A stretch of 64,000 bases of DNA. Origin: Candidatus Hydrogenedens sp. Lineage in GTDB: Bacteria > Hydrogenedentota > Hydrogenedentia > Hydrogenedentales > Hydrogenedentaceae. The translations under genes and the position numbers were made by a program. The stretch covers positions 12,152 through 76,151 of the forward strand of contig JBMFRC010000014.1 of the NCBI GenBank assembly GCA_049968235.1. Direction: 5' to 3'. The notes under the pieces were generated by a model that searched no databases, was not told the origin of the DNA, and saw only the letters and a program-made list of their open reading frames with translations. Below are positions 7,070 through 63,680 of this stretch, piece after piece. The first letter of the stretch is position 1. Each line of letters opens with the position of its first letter.

Positions 7070-7959
7070 ATCCTTCAAAGTTTGGCTCGTATTATATCGA
7101 ATTTTTGCCTTGAATTTGAAATGTGTCCCTTTACCTGCTTTGATAAGAGGAATATATATGACTGTTAAATAAAACATATATATAATAAAAAGATTATATA
7201 CAGAAAGGGTAAGTAGGAAAAAATAAAGCGACAAAAGGAATAGGTTAATTACCCGGTAAGGAAAAAATTAAAAGAAAAAAGGTAAATGTGCGATATGATG
7301 AAAGAGGTAAAGCAGGTGAGACTTTTAGATTATACAGTGTCACAACAAACACCGACATGATAAGAAAAATGATTGGGAGTGATGCAAGAGATAACCCTGT
7401 GGGAGAAATTGAAATGTAGATGAGTAGGAGGAAATGTATAGGATAAACGGGGGAGAGCGGAGGTTTCCATCCTTACTATTTTATGTATTGTTAAGAAGTG
7501 AGTAATGATTTCTCTGTGTTCTCTGTGGTTAATTATATTTTTTTCACCACGAAAGACATGGAGAGGCGTGGAGGATACAGAGGGTTACAGAGAGCATGGA
7601 GGTATTTATTTTATGATATGTATTTTTTTATTATTATTCCTTTTGAATTAAAAAGATTATGCCTTGTTTTTTTTATTTTAAGTTTTATAACAAGCATAAT
7701 ATAAATTCTACTAATATGCGGTATATGTAGATGCTATATATTTATTTGTAACTTTACACATGTGCATAATTTATAATAATTTAAATAATCTTTAAATTTT
7801 ATTTGACAAATATTGCTAAAGTATGTTAATTTTGTAAAAGACAATTGAATATTTATTAAGATTTATTTTTGATAAGGGCTAATTTGTGTGAGGACAGTAT
7901 CCTGCACTTATAGTTTGTTATGTTTATTAATCGAAACTTTTTAACAGAAGGAGTGGCTT

Positions 7960-10029
7960 ATGCAAAGGTTAAAATTGGTAATCGGTTTTCAATTATGTCT
8001 GTGGCTCTTTGTAATTGGAGCATGGGCTGATGCGCCCGCAAACTACACATGGACTAATGCCCCCGGAGGTGCATTTACTGCGTCAAGCGTGGATTTTGAA
8101 GCATGGATGACCAAATTGGCTCAATTCCAGTTTGGTGGTGATGCTGTCTTTGATTTCTTAGACCCGACGGATGCAGATAATAATGACAATGGTGTGCTGG
8201 ATGTATATGAGTTTGCTTTATTAACTGCAATTTGCAACGATACTTCACATCCGCTACACGACACAATTCATGAGGCTTTCAAAGCAAACTGGACTGCATT
8301 TCAATCTCATCAAGGTGCATTAGTTAATTCACTTGCCCCCGCATTGGCGATTATAGGTGGTGCGTATGCTACATTAGGCGATGGCGATTATGGCAGGACA
8401 CCTGCTGCATGGTTCTCAGGCTCCTGGGGCTCGGTAGCGGAAATTCTATATGGATTATCCTCCTACGGTTCTTCATGGGGTGCAGGTCAACCTGCGGAAC
8501 CACCGTATGTTCGTCGTCAATCATATATGTCTATGTGTGGCGACTTTGATAGTGATGGCGTAAAGAACATTAACGAATGGTACGGGCAGAGTGGCAATGT
8601 AGAAAACTATGTTTCTGCCGCAATGAACCCATCAGTTACCACAAGTGGAGAAGACCCGAACGGTGTCTGTGAGACAGGTTTACGCTGGGGCAAAACTTAT
8701 TTTTATAATCCTGCCAATCAACATGTATATTGGTTACAACCCTATAGTTTGCCATGGGAAATTGCTGAACAGGTTGCTACGGAACATAGCCTTGTGAACA
8801 ATTCAAGTGAAACTATAGCCATTCCAGGTCATCTGGTAACTATAGATGATTCTGCAGAAAATGCCTGGATTATGAGCACGGTGTATCCACAAATCAATAG
8901 TAACATGTGGATAGGTGCCACAGATAAACTTACAGAAGGACAGTGGATTTGGATTGGAACAGGTGAACAATTCTGGCAGGGTGCTGCCGATGGAACTCCC
9001 GTTGGTGGGAAGTATACGAATTGGAATTCAGGAGAACCTAATGATTCCAGTGGTGAAGATTATGGCGAAATTACCAGTAGTGGCGGTTGGAATGATAATA
9101 AAGCCAGTGCTACTCGTAGAGGTTTAGTTGAGTTCCCGAATGCATATCCCGATAGCAATACCAACGGTATTCCTGATTACTGGGAGCAATTCTCAGGAGG
9201 AGGTGGTGGCGAAGGAGAAGGAACCGTTGAAGGGACACCTGAAGGTACACCCGAAGGAACACCGGAAGGTGAAGCACCGTGTGAATTTGAAGGAAGGATA
9301 AATGACTCAACCTTAGGACAGGGTCCATTATTGGCTCAGACTTTAGAAAGTAATAGTTCGCAATTAAATGCCTTGCTAACTGCTTTAGATATGTTGAGTT
9401 GGTTCAACTGGGATATCGAGTATTTAGAAGAAGTTATTGCCATGATTCGTCCATATCCCGGAGATGGATTGAAAGATTCATGGAGTATGGCATTGTTAGA
9501 ATACTGCATCTGCCATCCCAATTTCCGCACCGATTTAAATATCCCGGCAGATTTTGATTACAACAAGACATTATTCGAGCAAGACTGCACATGGTTAGCC
9601 ACAAATGTTGACCCAATATTCGCTGTATTACCACCGATGGTAGGTGATGTAATGGCAGGGCTATTAGGTTCCAGTGTAGAAATGCGAACCACATGGAATG
9701 CTATATTCCTTGCATTAACAGGTGGTGCAGTCGGATTGCCGAGTGTAAATAACTACCGTATCTATGGAATGGCAAAGGCAAATGATGGTGCTATTGCAGC
9801 AAATGGTGACCTCGATGGTGACGGTAAGACGAACCTGCAAGAAGCACAGGAAGTCATTGCCGTGGGCGGTGGTATGGAATTATTTGTAAAAGCAGCCACA
9901 GATAAGACCAACATGTGGCCCGGCAATCCCGAAATTCCTGTCGGTGCAATTGCCATTATTGGTGCAATGACAGGTGTAATTGTGGCTGGAAGTTCATTAA
10001 TCTTAATTCGTCGACGTAAACAACTATAA
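7960..10029 (+). CDS. Secreted Ca-dependent C-type lectin domain protein with EF-hand-like loops and a PEP-CTERM-like C-terminal anchor
   Basis: Signal peptide ([25 protein letters not shown]). Canonical CTLD block [17 protein letters not shown]...NWNSGEPND...WNDNKA with EPN and WND motifs. Three 12-residue EF-hand/dockerin-like loops ([36 protein letters not shown]). (EGTP)n linker. C-terminus [44 protein letters not shown]. Confidence 0.6.
9229..9270 (+). repeat. Tandem 12-nt repeat encoding an (EGTP)n linker
   Basis: gaagggacacct / gaaggtacaccc / gaaggaacaccg / gaaggtgaagca, imperfect tandem copies inside the lectin gene. Confidence 0.8.
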
Positions 10030-10114
10030 TAACTTATTATTATGGCACCCGGTTGCTGTGATACCGGGTGCCAAAATGTGGTTTAATTTTAATATTAATG
10101 GAGGATATAGGCTT

Positions 10115-11008
10115 ATGAAACAGAGAAAAGGCTTTACTCTCATTGAACTTCTTGTTGTTATTGCCATTATTGGCATACTTGCGGCAATTTTATTGCCAGC
10201 ACTTGCTCGTGCTCGTGAGGCAGCGCGTCGTTCTTCCTGTCAGAATAACTTAAAGCAGATAGGTTTGTCTATGAAGATGTATGCTAACGAGGCAAAAGGA
10301 GAACGCTTCCCTACAGTAAGTATAGCAGGTGGAGATACTTGTGATGATATTCGCATTGATTTTATGTGGTGGGGACCGCAATTGTATCCAGAATATTTAT
10401 CAGACCTGAATGTTAATGTATGCCCATCCGATTCTGATGGTAAAAGGGCATATACCGATGGTCGCTGGCATTGCGGTGGGAATCCGGGTAATCCTATTTG
10501 CCCTTGCAGAATTGATGCTCTATCTTATATCTACATTTGCTGGACATTACGCGAACAGGATTATATGATGCCTGGTATGGACCCCAATGACCCAAATGTC
10601 TCTTCCTTCCAATTACCTATTAATTATATTAACCCGTTCTTCGTACAATTCCTTATGGACCTGGTAGCTGCGGTAAATGCTTCTCCAGATACAAGTACAG
10701 CACTGGGACTTGTAGATAAAGATTTTACATACAACACAGCAGATTCTCAAGGTAAGATAACCATGTATCGACTTCGTGAAGGAATAGAACGATTCCTTAT
10801 CACTGACATTAACAATCCTGCTGCAAGTACACAAGCACAAAGTGAAATTGCTTTCTTTTTCGATGGTATAGAAACAACTCCATCAGACTTCAATCATATT
10901 CCTGGTGGTGCTAATGTGCTTTATATGGATGGGCATGTGCAATTTGTTCGTTTCCCAACAGACCATCCTGCTAATAAAGTATTTGCTGCAATTATTGGAA
11001 ATGTCTAA
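10115..11008 (+). CDS. DUF1559 protein with N-terminal prepilin-type cleavage/methylation domain (pseudopilin-like, H-X9-DG-type C-terminus)
   Basis: [48 protein letters not shown]-terminus (class III signal, Gly-Phe cleavage site) and C-terminal [12 protein letters not shown] motif. GGAGGA RBS before the ATG at 10115. Confidence 0.8.
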
Positions 11009-11040
11009 TTAGATAAGATAAAAAATAATATTCTATATTG

Positions 11041-11078
11041 AAGACTGCTTCTATAAAAAGAAGCAGTCTTTCTTTTAA
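11041..11078 (+). terminator. Rho-independent terminator
   Basis: AAGACTGCTTCT-ataaaa-AGAAGCAGTCTT perfect 12-bp stem followed by TCTTTTAAT. Confidence 0.8.
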
Positions 11079-11131
11079 TATTGTTACTATGTTAAAATAA
11101 ACATGTGAGATATAATAAAGGTAAATAATTT

Positions 11132-12064
11132 ATGCAATGTAACCAAAGGGAAAAAGTGGAAGATATTCTTTCAGAACAGGCTATTGAAATTATCAAGAAT
11201 CTTGATGTAGGTGCTTATGTTGTTTCCCCCGAAAGAGAGATTCTTTTCTGGAATGATAAAGCGTCTGAAATAACGGGTTATAACGACAATGAGGTGGTAG
11301 GTTCTTTATGTCAGGACAATCTATTGCGTCATGTGGATGACAACGGAACAGAACTGTGTATTCACGGATGTCCTCTATTAGAAACAATTAAAGATGGACA
11401 AATCCGTAAGACTCGTGTTTATTTGCGACACAAAGCAGGCTATCGAATGCCTGTAAAAGTAGAGACTTTACCCATTAAGATAAACAATGAAATTAAAGGT
11501 GCTGTTGAATTTTTTCAGGAGGATACTGAAGAACTTAATTTATTAGAAGAACTTCGCAGAACCCGTGAAAAAGCCTTAATCTGTCCTCTAACCGAAATTG
11601 GAAATCGCAGGTACACGGAGCAGATGCTTAAAGACCGTTTAGAAGAAATGAATCGGTTAAAAAGTAGTTTAGGTTTGTTCTTTATTGATATCGATGATTT
11701 TAAGCATATCAACGATACTTATGGACATCCCATAGGCGATATCGTGTTGAAAATGGTTGCCCGAACCCTTGTAAGTATAATGCGTCCGTATGATTTTGTA
11801 GGACGATGGGGAGGCGAAGAAATTGTTGCAATAGTACCTCATGTAAAACAGGAAGAATTGTTTGAATTGGGAGAGAGATTCCGTAAATTGATTTCAGCCA
11901 GTAGTATAAAAACAATGCAGGGACGATTAGGTGTTACAGTCTCTATCGGTGCAACCGTTTCTTGTGTAGAAGATACAGTTTATTCTATTATTGAACGGGC
12001 AGATAGAATGATGTATGAAAGCAAACGTAACGGTAAAAATAGGGTTACTATTTATTCCTCTTAG
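11132..12064 (+). CDS. PAS-domain diguanylate cyclase (GGDEF domain, motif variant GGEEI)
   Basis: N-terminal PAS-like region and a C-terminal GGDEF domain (RWGGEEIVAIVP, KHINDTYGHPIGD, RADRMMYESKRNGKNRV). Confidence 0.8.
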   Translation: MQCNQREKVEDILSEQAIEIIKNLDVGAYVVSPEREILFWNDKASEITGYNDNEVVGSLCQDNLLRHVDDNGTELCIHGCPLLETIKDGQIRKTRVYLRHKAGYRMPVKVETLPIKINNEIKGAVEFFQEDTEELNLLEELRRTREKALICPLTEIGNRRYTEQMLKDRLEEMNRLKSSLGLFFIDIDDFKHINDTYGHPIGDIVLKMVARTLVSIMRPYDFVGRWGGEEIVAIVPHVKQEELFELGERFRKLISASSIKTMQGRLGVTVSIGATVSCVEDTVYSIIERADRMMYESKRNGKNRVTIYSS

Positions 12065-12069
12065 TGCTT

Positions 12070-12858
12070 TTATCCACGAGTTTCGATACGGTGATTTTTT
12101 CCAGCATAGTGAAGATTATCAAAATATTTCTGGGGATTGATAATTCTTCCATTTTGTGAAATTTCCAGATGTAAATGATTGCCTGTAGACCTTCCTGTTG
12201 AACCCACCTTCGCTATTTGTGTCGTTATATCAACTTGCTCTCCTTTTTTGACTAAATTTTTCTCGTTGTGAGCATAGAAACTACTTGTGCCATCTTCATG
12301 TTTTATTCTCACATAATTTCCATAACTTTTACTAAAACCTGTCTCTTCTACAATACCTGCTTTAACAGGATATATGGGTGCTCCTCGAGGTGCAGATATA
12401 TCTATTCCCTTATGAAAAGTTCTTTTCCCTGTAAATGGGTCATTTCTCCAGCCATATGTAGAGGAAACCCGTTTTTGTAATGGGACAATACCTGACAGCG
12501 GATTGGATGAATTTTTGTAGGTATTTTTTAGTTTCTGATTGAAATTTTTCAAAACTTTTACAGGAGGATTTGCTACACTTTTTAAGGAAGAAACTGAGTT
12601 CATATTACCTGAAAAAATATTATATGCTTCTAAATTTTTAGGATATGACAAAAGAATAGGGGGAAGGTTGCTGACATTTACAAAACTCGGAGAATTATTA
12701 GAAGAAATTTCTGAATCCATATTATTCAAGAGTATGTTCAAAAAGGAAGTATTTTGAATTTGCTGTAATAACGACAAATTGGATAGGGAAAATATTCCCG
12801 TATTTTTCTCTATCATATTGTTTTTCGTTGAATAAGAAATTGGAGAAATACGGTGCAT
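12070..12858 (-). CDS. M23 family metallopeptidase (LytM domain)
   Basis: HKGIDISAP...GNYVRIKHEDGTSSFYAHN...GSTGRSTGNHLHLEI. The HxxxD and HxH zinc motifs of M23 are present. N/S-rich N-terminal 130 residues without an obvious signal peptide. Confidence 0.75.
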   Translation of the reverse strand: MHRISPISYSTKNNMIEKNTGIFSLSNLSLLQQIQNTSFLNILLNNMDSEISSNNSPSFVNVSNLPPILLSYPKNLEAYNIFSGNMNSVSSLKSVANPPVKVLKNFNQKLKNTYKNSSNPLSGIVPLQKRVSSTYGWRNDPFTGKRTFHKGIDISAPRGAPIYPVKAGIVEETGFSKSYGNYVRIKHEDGTSSFYAHNEKNLVKKGEQVDITTQIAKVGSTGRSTGNHLHLEISQNGRIINPQKYFDNLHYAGKNHRIETRG

Positions 12859-13064: not shown

Positions 13065-14027
13065 TTACATTTCATCCGAACAAATGAGGCAGGATGCACA
13101 AAGAGGATTTTTCGAGAAATCACCACGTATAAAATTCTGACGAATTTCTATAGCCCGTGGAGAATTCCATACATCGTAAATAGAACTTTCCGCCACATTC
13201 CCTAAAACCATTTTCTTGAAATAATCCGTGCAACATAAAACCATATCCCCATTAAATAGGATATAGGCTTGTTTAAATAAACGGGTGCAGTGTTTGAATG
13301 GAATTGCCTTGCCGGGATTTAATTTGCGGAAAGTAGAATTATTTCCGCCTCGATTTTCCAATGCAGTATATTTTGAATTAACACCCATTTTTTTCCAGTA
13401 ATTTACTGCTTTATCTACATCAATAAGATTTGTTTTAACCATAGTTATGGTGATTTTCAATTCGGGACAATGTTCATTTCGTTTTTGAATAAGATACTCA
13501 ACATTTCTTTTTGTCTCTTCAAATTTTAAACTTCCTCGCATTGTTTCTTCATAAGGTTCTTTTTCGATGCCCTGCATGGAAATAAATATGTGCTGGAAGG
13601 GATTATCTTTAATCAGGTCATCTACCACAGCAGGTGATAATTTCCCACCATTCGTTGTGATGATAATTCGTGATTTGGGGATAATTTTCTTGATATATCG
13701 TGAGCGTTCTAAAATTTTGGGGTCTAAAAAGGGTTCGTTCATTAAGTAGGGGCTGATACGGCGTGTTTTCTTATGTTGTGCGATTTCGTGAACAATTTTT
13801 TGAAATAACTCGTCGTTCATCGTTCCTTTTGGAACATGTTCTACACTTAAAACATAGGGGCAAAAAACACAAGCGCCATTACAACCGGTTTTCGTTTGTA
13901 TTTGCACTGTAAGTGGAAAATCAGGAACTTTACGAAGCATTAGAGATTTCACTGTATCAGCCCACCACCGTTCATCTGTGCCTTTTATATAAAAACTTTT
14001 CTTCCATTTTCTAATGAAATTTATCAT
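13065..14027 (-). CDS. Radical SAM enzyme with C-terminal SPASM/twitch-like Cys-rich auxiliary-cluster domain
   Basis: CNGACVFC (CxxxCxxC) at residues 49-56, an ITTNGG strand typical of the SPASM subfamily, and C-terminal Cys pattern C..CC...C..C..C (CTRLF...VLCCTD...CASCLIC). AAGGA RBS. Confidence 0.75.
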   Translation of the reverse strand: MINFIRKWKKSFYIKGTDERWWADTVKSLMLRKVPDFPLTVQIQTKTGCNGACVFCPYVLSVEHVPKGTMNDELFQKIVHEIAQHKKTRRISPYLMNEPFLDPKILERSRYIKKIIPKSRIIITTNGGKLSPAVVDDLIKDNPFQHIFISMQGIEKEPYEETMRGSLKFEETKRNVEYLIQKRNEHCPELKITITMVKTNLIDVDKAVNYWKKMGVNSKYTALENRGGNNSTFRKLNPGKAIPFKHCTRLFKQAYILFNGDMVLCCTDYFKKMVLGNVAESSIYDVWNSPRAIEIRQNFIRGDFSKNPLCASCLICSDEM

Positions 14028-20538: not shown

Positions 20539-21444
20539 TTAATCACCACCGGTTTGACTATCCAGGAAACAAGCCCATAAACGAGAAACAGGGTTTGTTC
20601 CAGGATAACGCACAAACTCCACATGTCCGTCCATATATAAAACATTTCCGCCACCGGGAACATGATTCATATATTCGGGTTGGGAATTAACATCATCGGA
20701 CAATATCCATACTTCACTTTGGGCTTTGTTGGAAGCAGCAGGATTGTTAATATCTGTTATCAGGAATCGTTCAATCCCTTCGCGAAGCCGATATATTGTA
20801 ACAGTTCCTTGTTTTGCATCGGAGTCCAACAAACTAGCGTCTCCATTATTTGCCCAGTTTGCATAACCATTGTTGATTATCGTTAAAATGGCGGTTAAGA
20901 AGTCTGGGTTGAAATAGTTCATTGCATTAGTTTCATTAATTGCCGGGTCATTAACATCCTGTCCGGGTAGAACCATATCCTCATCCATTATTGCCCAACC
21001 ATAATAATTGTATGATTCCGCACTGAAACGACATGGATTTTTCTCATCCAGATTGGGGTCAGCATTACGGTTCCACCAACCATCTACAGTAACATGTGTT
21101 CGTGCAGTCGAATCCGATGGACATATTAAGATATTTGTATCTGTTAAATATTCTGGATACACAGCCCGTGCATTGAAAAATGCTTCAATAGAACCCCGCC
21201 TTTTGCAATCATCAGGCATAGTACGGTCCCCCTGCCATATTTGAATTGAGGGGTATCTTTCCCCTTTCGATTCATTTGAATACATCTTGAACACCAAACC
21301 TAATTGTTTAAGATTGTTTTGACAGGAAGACCGCCGTGCCGCTTCACGGGCACGAGCCAGCGCTGGTAAAAGGATAGCAGCAAGTATTCCGATTATCGCT
21401 ATCACAACCAGCAGTTCAATGAGAGTAAAACCTTTTTTTAACAT
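20539..21444 (-). CDS. DUF1559 protein with prepilin-type N-terminal domain (second paralog)
   Basis: [50 protein letters not shown] and C-terminal [12 protein letters not shown]. The N-terminal 45 aa are near-identical to the 10115 paralog but use different codons. Confidence 0.8.
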
Positions 21445-36072: not shown

Positions 36073-37422
36073 ATGACACAGCGTTTTACATTACTAGATT
36101 CAGATGATTTCGGTAAAGAACCTGACAACAAAAAGGTTGGGAAGGTGAGTAATCCGGGTTCAGTGGTAGGCTTTTCAGGTGTAATGTCTGGGAAGGAAGA
36201 GTTTCCCGGTAAGAAAATCCTTATTAAAGTTTGTGGTGTAGGCGGAGGAGGAGGAAATGCCATTGAACGGATGATAGAACAAAAGATGGAAGAGGTGGAT
36301 TTCATTGCTATTAACACCGATGCTCAGGCATTGTCCAAATCTACCGCTCCTATCAAGATACAGATAGGTGTAGGTATCACAGGAGGATTGGGAGCGGGTT
36401 CTCTTCCGGACTGTGGTGCTTGTGCGGCAGAAGAGGACCGGGAAACCATCCGTGAGGCTTTGGAAGGAGCCCACATGGTTTTCTTGACTTCGGGAATGGG
36501 TGGAGGAACAGGAACAGGTGCGGCTCCCATTGTGGCTGAAATTGCCAAGGATTTAGGTGCCCTTACCGTGGCGGTTGTTACTTTACCGTTTGAGTTTGAA
36601 GGTCCGGTAAGGAAACGAAATGCGTATGAAGGGATACAGAGGTTAAGAGAACATGTAGATGCTTTAATTACCATTCCGAATGACCGTGTATCAACATTAA
36701 AAGATTTGACTGTAAAAGAAGCATTTTTGAAAGTAGATGAGGTTTTGCATAATGGAATACGTGCAATAACTGACCTTATCAAGATTCCTCAACTTATCAA
36801 TATTGATTTTGCAGATGTGCGTACAATTCTTCAAAATAGTGGGAAAGCCCATCTGGGTATTGGTTTGGCTCGAGGGGAAAAAAGACCGGAGGAAGCGGTC
36901 CTTCGTGCTATTGAATGTAATTTACTAGATACAAAAAGTGTAGTTGGAGCCAAAGGGGCTATATTAAATATTCATGGTGGTTCTGATATGAAAATGGCAG
37001 AAGTGCTTCGTGCAGGTGATAAATTGAGAGAAATGTTGGGCCCTGATGCGAATGTGATATTTGGTGCAATGATAAGTGAAGGAGAAAGAGAAGATATTTG
37101 TGTTACAGTTATTGCTGCAGGTTTTCCGGAAGAACAAAAATCAAGTGAATTTATTCCATCCGCAATTACTAATATTACCAAAGAACAACAGGTTACTTCT
37201 TCAATATCTTCTATAAATAAAGGGGATACGCTACAGATAAAAGAGAAGAAAGAAGAAGCAATTCCTAAGGAAGAAAAGAAACCGGAGCATGGAGAAGAAC
37301 TCTTTTCTAAAGAAGAATTGAAAAAAGCAAATGAAACACCACCCAAAAAAGATGAAAAACCAACTTTAGACCCGAAACCTCCATGGCTTCGTCAATTTTT
37401 TGAAAAAAACTCGGATAGATGA
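36073..37422 (+). CDS. ftsZ: Cell division GTPase FtsZ (with ~45-aa N-terminal extension and long acidic/basic C-terminal tail)
   Basis: GVGGGGGNA, FLTSGMGGGTGTGAAP (tubulin signature) and NDRV... Confidence 0.9.
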   Translation: MTQRFTLLDSDDFGKEPDNKKVGKVSNPGSVVGFSGVMSGKEEFPGKKILIKVCGVGGGGGNAIERMIEQKMEEVDFIAINTDAQALSKSTAPIKIQIGVGITGGLGAGSLPDCGACAAEEDRETIREALEGAHMVFLTSGMGGGTGTGAAPIVAEIAKDLGALTVAVVTLPFEFEGPVRKRNAYEGIQRLREHVDALITIPNDRVSTLKDLTVKEAFLKVDEVLHNGIRAITDLIKIPQLINIDFADVRTILQNSGKAHLGIGLARGEKRPEEAVLRAIECNLLDTKSVVGAKGAILNIHGGSDMKMAEVLRAGDKLREMLGPDANVIFGAMISEGEREDICVTVIAAGFPEEQKSSEFIPSAITNITKEQQVTSSISSINKGDTLQIKEKKEEAIPKEEKKPEHGEELFSKEELKKANETPPKKDEKPTLDPKPPWLRQFFEKNSDR

Positions 37423-37435
37423 CAAAAGGTTTTTT

Positions 37436-38548
37436 ATGAGCATATCACCTGTTCGGAACGAGTTTATAAAACTCTTACAACGCGCTATTCAAAAAGATGC
37501 TTCAGATATACATTTAAAAACGGGAAGTCCTCCTTATTTCCGCGTGAATGGAGAATTATCCCCGATAGGTGAAGAACCTATATATCCCGAAACTATGTCT
37601 CAAATCTTGAGTGTTATGCTCAACGATGAACAGATGCGTATTTTTTCTCAACGGGGAGATTTAGATTTTGCTTTTTCAGAAAAAGGAGTAGGCCGTTTTC
37701 GTGTGAGTATTTTCCGTCAGAGGGGAACGATTTCCTGTGTAATGCGGAAAATTAAAACCCGTATTCAGACTTTTGAAGAATTACATCTTCCCCCTCAGAT
37801 AGTGCGATTTACCGAGTTACAACGAGGATTAATTTTAATTGCAGGGACTACAGGCAGTGGAAAATCAACTACCCTTGCAGCAATTGTGGAATATATTAAT
37901 CAAACACGTCCGTGTCATATTATTACTATTGAAGACCCAATAGAATTTATTCATGTAGATAAAAAAGCAGTTATCAATCAACGGGAAGTGTCTATTGATA
38001 CGCATGATTTTAATTCCGCTTTGCGAACGGTGATGAGGCAGGACCCGGATGTAATCGTGATTGGTGAAATGCGAGACCATGAAACTTTCATGGCGGCGGT
38101 AAGTGCAGCCGAAACGGGACACCTTGTTTTTAGCACCTTACATACAACGAATGTAATGCAAACGATGGATCGAATTATTGACTTTTTCCCTACCAATATG
38201 CATGACCAGGTGCGTTCTCAGTTATCACTAAATCTGAAAGCGATTATGTGTATGCGTCTTATTCCGCGTGCAGATGGGCGTGGTCGGGTGCCTGCATGTG
38301 AGATTTTATTTAATACACCGATTGTCCGAAAATTAATAAAAGAAAATCGTATGACTCAAATGGATACAGTTCTTCAACAGGGGAAGGAAGAAGGTATGCA
38401 AACTTTTAACGATAGCCTTTTTCAATTAGTAAAGGAATCTCTCATTACACTGGATATGGCTATTGATATGTCGGACAATCCGGAAGAACTTCAGATGATG
38501 TTGCAGGGGATACGATTAAGTTCCCGACGGGGAAGTATCCTTAAATAG
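37436..38548 (+). CDS. pilT: Type IV pilus retraction ATPase PilT
   Basis: Walker A GTTGSGKST, PilT-specific AIRNLIRE-like blocks and the HLVFSTLHT His box. ATG at 37436 is 14 nt after the ftsZ stop (the table ORF begins at TTG 37400). Confidence 0.85.
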   Translation: MSISPVRNEFIKLLQRAIQKDASDIHLKTGSPPYFRVNGELSPIGEEPIYPETMSQILSVMLNDEQMRIFSQRGDLDFAFSEKGVGRFRVSIFRQRGTISCVMRKIKTRIQTFEELHLPPQIVRFTELQRGLILIAGTTGSGKSTTLAAIVEYINQTRPCHIITIEDPIEFIHVDKKAVINQREVSIDTHDFNSALRTVMRQDPDVIVIGEMRDHETFMAAVSAAETGHLVFSTLHTTNVMQTMDRIIDFFPTNMHDQVRSQLSLNLKAIMCMRLIPRADGRGRVPACEILFNTPIVRKLIKENRMTQMDTVLQQGKEEGMQTFNDSLFQLVKESLITLDMAIDMSDNPEELQMMLQGIRLSSRRGSILK

Positions 38549-63294: not shown

Positions 63295-63370
63295 GCTGGC
63301 GTAGCTCAGCAGGTAGAGCAGCTGACTTGTAATCAGCAGGTCGGGGGTTCGATTCCCTTCGCCAGCTCCA
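63295..63370 (+). tRNA. tRNA-Thr (anticodon UGU)
   Basis: Cloverleaf read by hand: acceptor GCTGGCG/CGCCAGC, anticodon stem GCTGA/TCAGC with loop CTTGTAA, T-loop TTCGATT, encoded CCA. Confidence 0.9.
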
Positions 63371-63393
63371 CGAAATTGAATATATAATTTTGT

Positions 63394-63479
63394 GGTGGGC
63401 TGCCCGAGTGGTTAAAGGGGACGGGCTGTAAACCCGTTGGCTAGCGCCTACGTTGGTTCGAATCCAGCGCCCACCACCA
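63394..63479 (+). tRNA. tRNA-Tyr (anticodon GUA), class II with long variable arm
   Basis: Acceptor GGTGGGC/GCCCACC, anticodon loop CTGTAAA, long variable arm, TTCGAAT T-loop, encoded CCA. Closely resembles E. coli tRNA-Tyr. Confidence 0.9.
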
Positions 63480-63522
63480 ATTTGAGATAAAACGCACAAA
63501 AGCGTTTATAATATACGCATTT

Positions 63523-63599
63523 GCGGGAGTAGCTCAGTTGGTAGAGCGTCAGCCTTCCAAGCTGAGGGTCACGGGTTCGAATCCCGCCTCCCGCTCCAG
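63523..63599 (+). tRNA. tRNA-Gly (anticodon UCC)
   Basis: Acceptor GCGGGAG/CTCCCGC, anticodon stem TCAGC/GCTGA with loop CTTCCAA, TTCGAAT T-loop, CCA. Confidence 0.9.
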
Positions 63600-63604
63600 A
63601 TTTT

Positions 63605-63680
<76 letters not shown>

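Follow-up and report, generated by a model that had tools for sequence, protein, structure and literature searches.

The window analysed here is a 64-kb stretch of genomic DNA from Candidatus Hydrogenedens (Hydrogenedentota). It carries, on one strand, a gene for a C-type lectin and a gene for a pilin-like protein of the DUF1559 family (DUF1559a), closed by an intrinsic terminator and followed by a gene for a PAS-GGDEF diguanylate cyclase; a second DUF1559 gene (DUF1559b) and a gene for a PilT-family ATPase are encoded elsewhere in the same stretch. An earlier note had described these features and proposed a surface or pilus-associated module linked to signalling by cyclic di-GMP (c-di-GMP). 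Each feature was recovered where the note had placed it, using open reading frame (ORF) calls, Pfam and NCBIfam profiles and fold scores. The components of the locus are members of known families, and their arrangement is a lineage-specific instance. Comparison with relatives supports a probable lectin-DUF1559a operon, which we tentatively interpret as part of an envelope module restricted to one clade.

The note had also referred to the expansion of DUF1559 in genomes of the Planctomycetota-Verrucomicrobiota-Chlamydiota (PVC) type. The window is not of this type: an NCBI protein encoded by a metagenome-assembled genome of a Candidatus Hydrogenedens sp. matches DUF1559a at 100% identity, and the lectin is 88% identical to that of a locus in Ca. 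Hydrogenedens terephthalaticus (L012), which places the window in Hydrogenedentota and not in the PVC group. Throughout, the loci compared are the window and loci of relatives extending ±10 kb, the latter designated by L numbers.

The probable lectin-DUF1559a transcription unit and its neighbours

The lectin and DUF1559a genes lie on the same strand and are separated by exactly 85 nt from the lectin stop to the DUF1559a ATG, as had been claimed, with a hairpin lacking a U-tract in the gap and a conserved terminator downstream (Table 1). The description of this terminator as strong is borne out by a fold z-score of -4.9, none of 200 shuffled sequences folding as well. A stem and a U-tract follow DUF1559a in the window, L012, L001, L005, L006 and L091, with differing stem sequences. 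The intercistronic hairpin is the same in L012, L001 and L010, whereas L005, L006 and L091 have another GC hairpin at this position. Upstream of the lectin gene, a TTGACA/TG-n-TAATTT element is conserved in the window, L012, L010 and L001; its -10 hexamer is too weak for the element to be listed by a consensus scan, and it would be the promoter of the lectin gene. In the presumed leader, an inverted repeat with no Rfam match keeps its position and pairing potential in four A-clade genomes (defined below) despite base changes. The hairpin, the terminator and the promoter-like element with the inverted repeat hold their positions while their sequences have diverged, and together they support a lectin-DUF1559a transcription unit from which the cyclase gene is separate. 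On these signals, the lectin and DUF1559a genes are probably co-transcribed.

The lectin scores 40.5 bits against PF00059 Lectin_C (cutoff 22.6) and belongs to a rare family, with 17 homologs among 5.8 billion proteins, about six of them full-length. An alignment of nine homologs shows no variation at E359-P360-N361, E366 or W377-N378-D379, and the family profile aligns to animal carbohydrate-recognition domains (E 1e-11 to 1e-14) with EPN, the Glu and WND in register with the Ca2+/sugar site. This register is the point of likeness with the mannose-type C-type lectin-like domains (CTLDs) of SP-D (4m17), DC-SIGNR (1xph) and MBP-A. Unlike these, the Hydrogenedens lectin is bacterial, and its CTLD is one part of a 689-aa protein whose N- and C-terminal regions are uncharacterised and which ends in a predicted anchor; its sugar binding is putative. 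The alignment also shows no cysteines where the canonical disulfides would be (WNDNKASAT, for instance, stands in place of WND..C), and the domain, as judged from the alignment, is CTLD-like without canonical disulfides. Under the EPN/QPD rule, EPN denotes mannose-type specificity (PMC5379193), so the EPN motif predicts this specificity for the lectin. With the full EPN/E/WND calcium and sugar site kept, the site would belong to the mannose/GlcNAc/glucose class.

The C-terminal tail of the lectin follows a three-part consensus conserved in all lectin homologs aligned: GNPxLPV(A/G)G, a transmembrane segment and an Arg/Lys tail. Scanned in isolation, it gives marginal matches to LPXTG_anchor (16.7 bits versus 15.9) and to IPTL-CTERM; the tails of homologs match IPTL-CTERM below cutoff, the full-length lectin has no sorting-domain match in a curated profile scan, and neither sortase nor exosortase is encoded within the window. 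As these matches are only marginal, the tail was not assigned to the PEP-CTERM, LPXTG or IPTL-CTERM types. The higher GC content of the lectin gene (0.444) was rejected as evidence of horizontal transfer: the excess lies mainly at codon position 2, and GC at third positions is only 1.5 standard deviations above.

Two observations concern more distant members of the lectin family. In L003, a 317-aa protein (7382-8335) with an MshEN (T2SS-E N-terminal) domain alone is encoded about 2 kb upstream of a 50%-identical lectin homolog. In L007 (313-2310) and L008 (7742-9682), the distant lectin-family genes each follow a gene whose product, about 650 aa long, has no Pfam match; these preceding genes may be tandem paralogs without a recognisable lectin domain.

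Beyond the terminator, the cyclase carries the residues expected of GGDEF proteins: the GG(D/E)EF motif, the metal and substrate residues and the RxxD I-site, from which activity is predicted. A-clade orthologs have GGEEI as their active-site motif and B-clade orthologs have GGEEF, and DIDDFKxIND is invariant in the ortholog alignment. Within the PAS domain, C60, H67, C76 and C80-P81 are invariant in five orthologs; C60, H67, C76 and C80 may form a metal or Fe-S sensing site. The radical SAM/SPASM protein encoded at the 3' end of the block scores above cutoff for no NCBIfam family. In the A clade, a gene for an M23 peptidase lies between the cyclase and radical SAM genes.

Table 1. Positions of the features discussed (nucleotides of the window, unless a locus or contig is named).
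Feature	Position	Strand	Details
Promoter-like element	7803-7832	+	TTGACA, 17-18 nt, TG-n-TAATTT; upstream of lectin gene
Imperfect inverted repeat	7886-7907	+	GTGTGAGGACAGTATCCTGCAC; presumed lectin 5' untranslated region
Lectin gene	7960-10029	+	689 aa; Pfam Lectin_C at residues 290-383
Lectin N-terminal part			Signal peptide aa 1-23 (AWA/DAP, read by eye); N-terminal region with DxNxNG and DxDxDG loops
C-type lectin domain core	8827-9108	+	aa 290-383
EPN motif	9034-9042		aa 359-361
WND motif	9088-9096		aa 377-379
Lectin regions beyond C-type lectin domain			Gly/Glu/Thr/Pro linker, helical C-terminal region, C-terminal anchor
Lectin C-terminal tail	9916-10026	+	Motif, about 20 hydrophobic residues, then RRRKQL; sorting-signal- or membrane-anchor-like
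Intercistronic GC-rich hairpin	10044-10072	+	GGCACCCGG...CCGGGTGCC; z = -2.6; no U-tract after
DUF1559a gene	10115-11008	+	297 aa, pilin-like; true ATG 10115, after GGAGGA ribosome-binding site 10100-10105; leader MKQRKG/FTLIE, Glu at +5
43-aa block of DUF1559a	10130-10258		
H-X10-DG of DUF1559a	10895-10933		aa 261-273
Intrinsic terminator	11040-11079	+	Closes the lectin-DUF1559a unit; 13-bp perfect stem then CTTTT at 11040-11071
PAS-GGDEF diguanylate cyclase gene	11132-12064	+	GGDEF 143 bits, PAS_9 37.7 bits; GGEEI aa 227-231; RPYD I-site aa 218-221, five residues upstream
Radical SAM/SPASM gene	13065-14027	-	Pfam; converges on the GGDEF gene; conserved 3' end of the block
DUF1559b gene (paralog)	20539-21444	-	301 aa; 43-aa block at 21432-21304; strand unstated in the earlier note
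PilT/PilU-family ATPase gene	37400/37436-38548		TIGR01420 455.7 bits versus cutoff 319.1
GH38 and context-B flank	L091 1-2094 and 15254-18646; L005 8109-11522; L006 822-3620		
Tandem DUF1559 pairs	L092 10001-12164; ENA ERZ1426840, 10001-11872		ERZ1426840: genes on a 63-kb contig

DUF1559a, its paralog and their family

Both DUF1559 proteins of the window carry a class III prepilin signal: a short basic leader up to a Gly, then Phe, Glu at +5 and a hydrophobic stretch of about 20 residues. The DUF1559b leader, MLKKG/FTLIE, is short and basic. Profile scores agree for DUF1559a and DUF1559b, respectively: 39.1 and 33 bits for PF07963 N_methyl (cutoff 21.2), 36.6 and 37 bits for TIGR02532 (cutoff 16.3), and 28.7 and 26.1 bits for TIGR04294 H-X9-DG (cutoff 19), in which the match begins after the His. 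PF07596 scores 49.9 and 42.8 bits (cutoff 23.3), yet its matches cover only model positions 2-40 and 2-29 of 268. DUF1559a has the pilin fold, in which a beta-sheet head packs against a long N-terminal alpha1 helix. In 65 homologs H261 and D272-G273 are invariant with 10 residues between them, not nine (HxPGGxNxxxxDG), and four cysteines are invariant in the same 65-member family alignment.

Assignment of DUF1559a to GspG was rejected, as TIGR01710 gives 40 bits where the cutoff is 88.85, the match being confined to alpha1, and no gsp genes lie nearby. DUF1559a is pseudopilin-like, with a pilin fold, and is not a GspG. Compared with GspG/EpsG (PDB 4lw9) and type IV pilins, it is double the size (297 aa versus about 120-150), lies outside any gsp or pil operon and has about 150 head residues without structural counterpart. 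Its affinity is with the DUF1559/H-X9-DG family (PF07596 SBP_bac_10, TIGR04294), best known in Planctomycetota, since both window proteins match N_methyl, PF07596 and TIGR04294 above cutoffs. The differences from the family as described are the Hydrogenedentota host, the short PF07596 match, the His-to-DG spacing of 10 instead of 9 and, for the DUF1559a copy, a clade-specific lectin partner.

DUF1559a and DUF1559b are 51% identical overall and share 43 consecutive identical residues (GFTLIELL...NNLKQ). A near-identical N-terminus of 45 aa had been reported for the pair; the sharing is real, the length being 43 aa, or 44 with the preceding K. The use of different synonymous codons was likewise correctly noted: 28 of the 43 codons differ, and nucleotide identity in the block is 77%. 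The proportion of synonymous differences (pS, Nei-Gojobori) between the paralogs is 0.74-0.80, with 0.80 for the block and 0.72 outside it. These values amount to saturation, and the ratio of nonsynonymous to synonymous substitution (dN/dS) is about 0.15 overall. L012 and L001 contain separate orthologs of the two paralogs (78-93% and 92-94% identity). Saturated synonymous sites and separate orthologs establish an old duplication and exclude gene conversion, in line with the long-standing purifying selection that the earlier note had proposed. The 43-aa block is moreover identical in all orthologs fetched and invariant in the 65-member alignment. It is therefore a family signature, made up of the prepilin signal and the alpha1 helix, and not a property of these two paralogs in particular. 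Recent duplication or gene conversion, for which the run of 43 identical residues would be the argument, is refuted by the codon comparison, by the separate orthologs and by the invariance of the same residues across the family, and we regard its probability as negligible. DUF1559b orthologs adjoin ProRS in L012 and L001.

That DUF1559 is a huge family with no established function was rightly noted. A search with DUF1559a against 1.84 billion cluster representatives (50% identity) gave 264,288 matches at E<=1e-3, a number that fell to 88,139 at E<=1e-10 and to 1,017 at E<=1e-30. Planctopirus limnophila has 68 copies, two of them essential (PMC10632474), and Rhodopirellula baltica has 74 (PMC2754498). 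In the literature on DUF1559, H-X9-DG and Hydrogenedens pilins, DUF1559 figures solely as a large family of paralogs with no function assigned. Two longer proteins, P0153 (1239 aa) and P0245 (579 aa), contain 8 and 4 separate stretches matching DUF1559a, the best ones being C-terminal (query positions about 203-293); they may represent fused or repeated DUF1559 head domains. The closest non-orthologous relatives of DUF1559a, 63-64% identical, occur as tandem pairs near genes for a sulfatase, a DUF4838 protein and glycoside hydrolases.

Conservation of the gene block among relatives

Conservation of synteny in related genomes had been set beforehand as the test on which the proposed module would stand or fall. 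The order lectin, DUF1559a, PAS-GGDEF is kept in six relatives and in two flanking contexts. Context A, with SDR, ADH and aldolase genes upstream, is found in L012, L001/L002/L013 and L010/L011 (a truncated locus). Context B, found in L005, L006 and L091, is flanked by genes for GH38 alpha-mannosidases, a sulfotransferase, an APS kinase and a WbsX glycosyltransferase. When 19 window genes were compared by tblastn with the context-B loci L005 and L091, only the lectin, DUF1559a, GGDEF and radical SAM genes recurred. Even L012 and L001 are rearranged directly next to the block. As the block is kept in six relatives and in two otherwise unrelated contexts, a lectin-DUF1559a operon is supported as probable. 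The two GH38 alpha-mannosidase genes that flank the block in context B fit with a lectin of the EPN (mannose) type.

A possible envelope module and its rivals

Our preferred reading, which we put forward tentatively, is that of a clade-specific envelope module, comprising an anchored, Ca-dependent, mannose-type lectin and a co-transcribed pilin-like protein, with the nearby PAS-GGDEF protein as a possible regulator. The two genes would most likely be read from the promoter-like region upstream of the lectin gene, through the intercistronic hairpin, to the intrinsic terminator. The first would yield a Sec-exported lectin of about 690 aa, held on the envelope by its motif, transmembrane segment and basic tail. 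The product of the second would be a prepilin with a basic leader, a G/F junction, Glu at +5, a 50-residue alpha1 and an enlarged pilin-fold head ending in H-X10-DG. Once processed by a prepilin peptidase, DUF1559a would either remain an inner-membrane-anchored protein on the periplasmic side, or be assembled into a short fibre of the type II secretion system (T2SS) or type IV pilus (T4P) type. The lectin would bind mannose-type glycans at the surface and DUF1559a would work with it in the envelope, in glycan capture or adhesion. The separately transcribed PAS-GGDEF protein offers a plausible, unproven c-di-GMP input. A glycan-handling role fits with the GH38 mannosidases of context B and with the carbohydrate-related neighbours of other DUF1559 genes.

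Known systems combine some of these elements. Streptococcus sanguinis PilB and PilC are reportedly modular type IV pilins with lectin modules, and MSHA and type IV pili are controlled by c-di-GMP. The likeness lies in the association of a pilin scaffold with carbohydrate binding and in the link between c-di-GMP and pilus function. Unlike in PilB/PilC, the lectin and the pilin-like protein of Hydrogenedens are separate polypeptides, the lectin having its own Sec signal and anchor. In contrast to MSHA and type IV pili, the pair has no linked pilus machinery, and no c-di-GMP receptor was identified.

Several observations weigh against an envelope module, and some of them also count in favour of its main rival, namely that the adjacency is inherited history without coupling, a lectin gene having landed beside one of many DUF1559 paralogs in the ancestor of the clade. 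With 88,139 clusters at E<=1e-10 and 68-74 paralogs per planctomycete genome (PMC10632474, PMC2754498), chance neighbours of DUF1559 genes are to be expected. Only relatives whose lectin is at least 74% identical show the pairing; they form one genus-level clade, and all lectin-positive loci may stem from one ancestral juxtaposition and so would not be independent observations. Full-length lectin homologs at 27-50% identity (L003, L007, L008/L009 and L015-L019) have no prepilin-type gene within 10 kb, and among 79 loci with C-type lectin domains the pairing was seen only in the Hydrogenedens clade. Recurrence of lectin genes next to DUF1559 paralogs, which the earlier note had suggested checking, was not found either: of 55 genes immediately adjoining 40 other metagenomic DUF1559 genes, none encodes Lectin_C, the commonest families being TetR (4), sulfatase (3) and LacI-type regulators (3). 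Tested from both sides in these samples, no general association of DUF1559 with lectins was found. The module as first proposed is partly supported.

The same series of objections includes the DUF1559a ortholog P0023 (about 71% identical) of L173/L174. It lies in context A and is followed by PAS-GGDEF and radical SAM genes, in a locus with no lectin, no M23 and no DUF1559b gene; in L173, DUF1559b is absent from its expected position. Since this locus keeps DUF1559a, the cyclase and the radical SAM gene without the lectin, DUF1559a does not need the lectin. At the level of transcription, a weak promoter-like match at 10011-10040 lies just before the lectin-DUF1559a gap. The AlphaFold2 model of the lectin is unreliable, with a predicted local distance difference test score (pLDDT) of 49.9 from a nine-sequence alignment, and its other domains cannot be judged from it. 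As for pilus machinery, a search for PilD and a T2SS/T4P core had also been suggested; within the window, no prepilin peptidase (PilD/GspO), secretin, assembly ATPase or other T2SS/T4P core gene was found. The PilT gene is in the window as claimed, and its link to the pair is weakened by its location 26 kb away in a dcw neighbourhood. The c-di-GMP part of the module is likewise supported by adjacency and weakened by the conserved terminator that separates DUF1559a from the cyclase gene.

Set against inherited adjacency is the survival of the four-gene block where 15 of the 15 other tested neighbours differ, although synonymous sites between the clades are saturated. Spacing, intercistronic hairpin and terminator are also kept in position while their sequences diverge. 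The lectin-less locus itself provides a further argument. Neighbour-joining trees of the GGDEF and radical SAM proteins group L173 with clade A and leave the lectin-bearing clade B outside, so that loss of the lectin in L173 is the simpler history. In L173 (6208-6296; also in L174), the 52 nt that precede the DUF1559a start are closer to the leader of the window's lectin gene (77%, E 3e-4) than to its DUF1559a leader, and the lectin and DUF1559a start regions both contain GGCTTATG. On the strength of one case and a short AT-rich match, the lectin ORF may have been precisely deleted between the GGCTTATG start regions, which would have left DUF1559a behind the lectin promoter. Such an apparent leader fusion suggests a promoter shared by the two genes. 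On balance, adjacency without coupling is a serious possibility that we nevertheless consider doubtful.

A second rival places the functional unit elsewhere: DUF1559a and PAS-GGDEF, perhaps with the radical SAM/SPASM protein, would form a c-di-GMP-linked system around a possibly cysteine-modified pilin-like protein, and the lectin would be dispensable. DUF1559a-GGDEF-radical SAM is indeed the most deeply conserved set, being present in contexts A and B and in lectin-less L173: the cyclase gene is syntenic in all relatives and the radical SAM gene converges on it in every context, L173 included. The four invariant cysteines of DUF1559, the intact I-site and the GGEEF/GGEEI motif of the cyclase are in keeping with such a system. 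Against it, the conserved intrinsic terminator stands between DUF1559a and GGDEF, the convergent radical SAM gene cannot be co-transcribed and its product falls below every curated family cutoff, and neither GGDEF nor radical SAM is among the leading families beside other DUF1559 genes. We consider this arrangement unlikely.

A bolder extension of the envelope module, which we rate as a long shot, is that DUF1559/H-X9-DG proteins act as subunits, each specific to a substrate, of a T2SS/T4P-type envelope apparatus that captures or takes up glycans, one such subunit being paired here with its cognate mannose-type lectin under one promoter. If true, a family of tens of thousands of sequence clusters, so far without a function, would gain its first concrete partner open to testing; the conserved neighbouring cyclase and radical SAM protein could add c-di-GMP control and cysteine modification. 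DUF1559 is among the largest protein families without known function, and an operon partner with a readable activity such as an EPN-type lectin would give an experimental entry to it. Because the link is confined to a small clade and dispensable in a close relative, the proposed envelope module is a hypothesis of local scope, which does not extend to the DUF1559 family at large.

Two minor observations concern the remainder of the window. A riboswitch or other known RNA element near the genes was rejected, since Rfam returned only four tRNAs at gathering threshold over the window and no match at E<=1 over 7100-12200; a four-tRNA cluster lies near the window end (63295-63677). The PilT-family gene directly follows ftsQ-ftsZ on the same strand (36073-38548), its TTG start at 37400 overlapping the end of ftsZ at 37422, and ftsQ-ftsZ is an unusual neighbour for a retraction ATPase.

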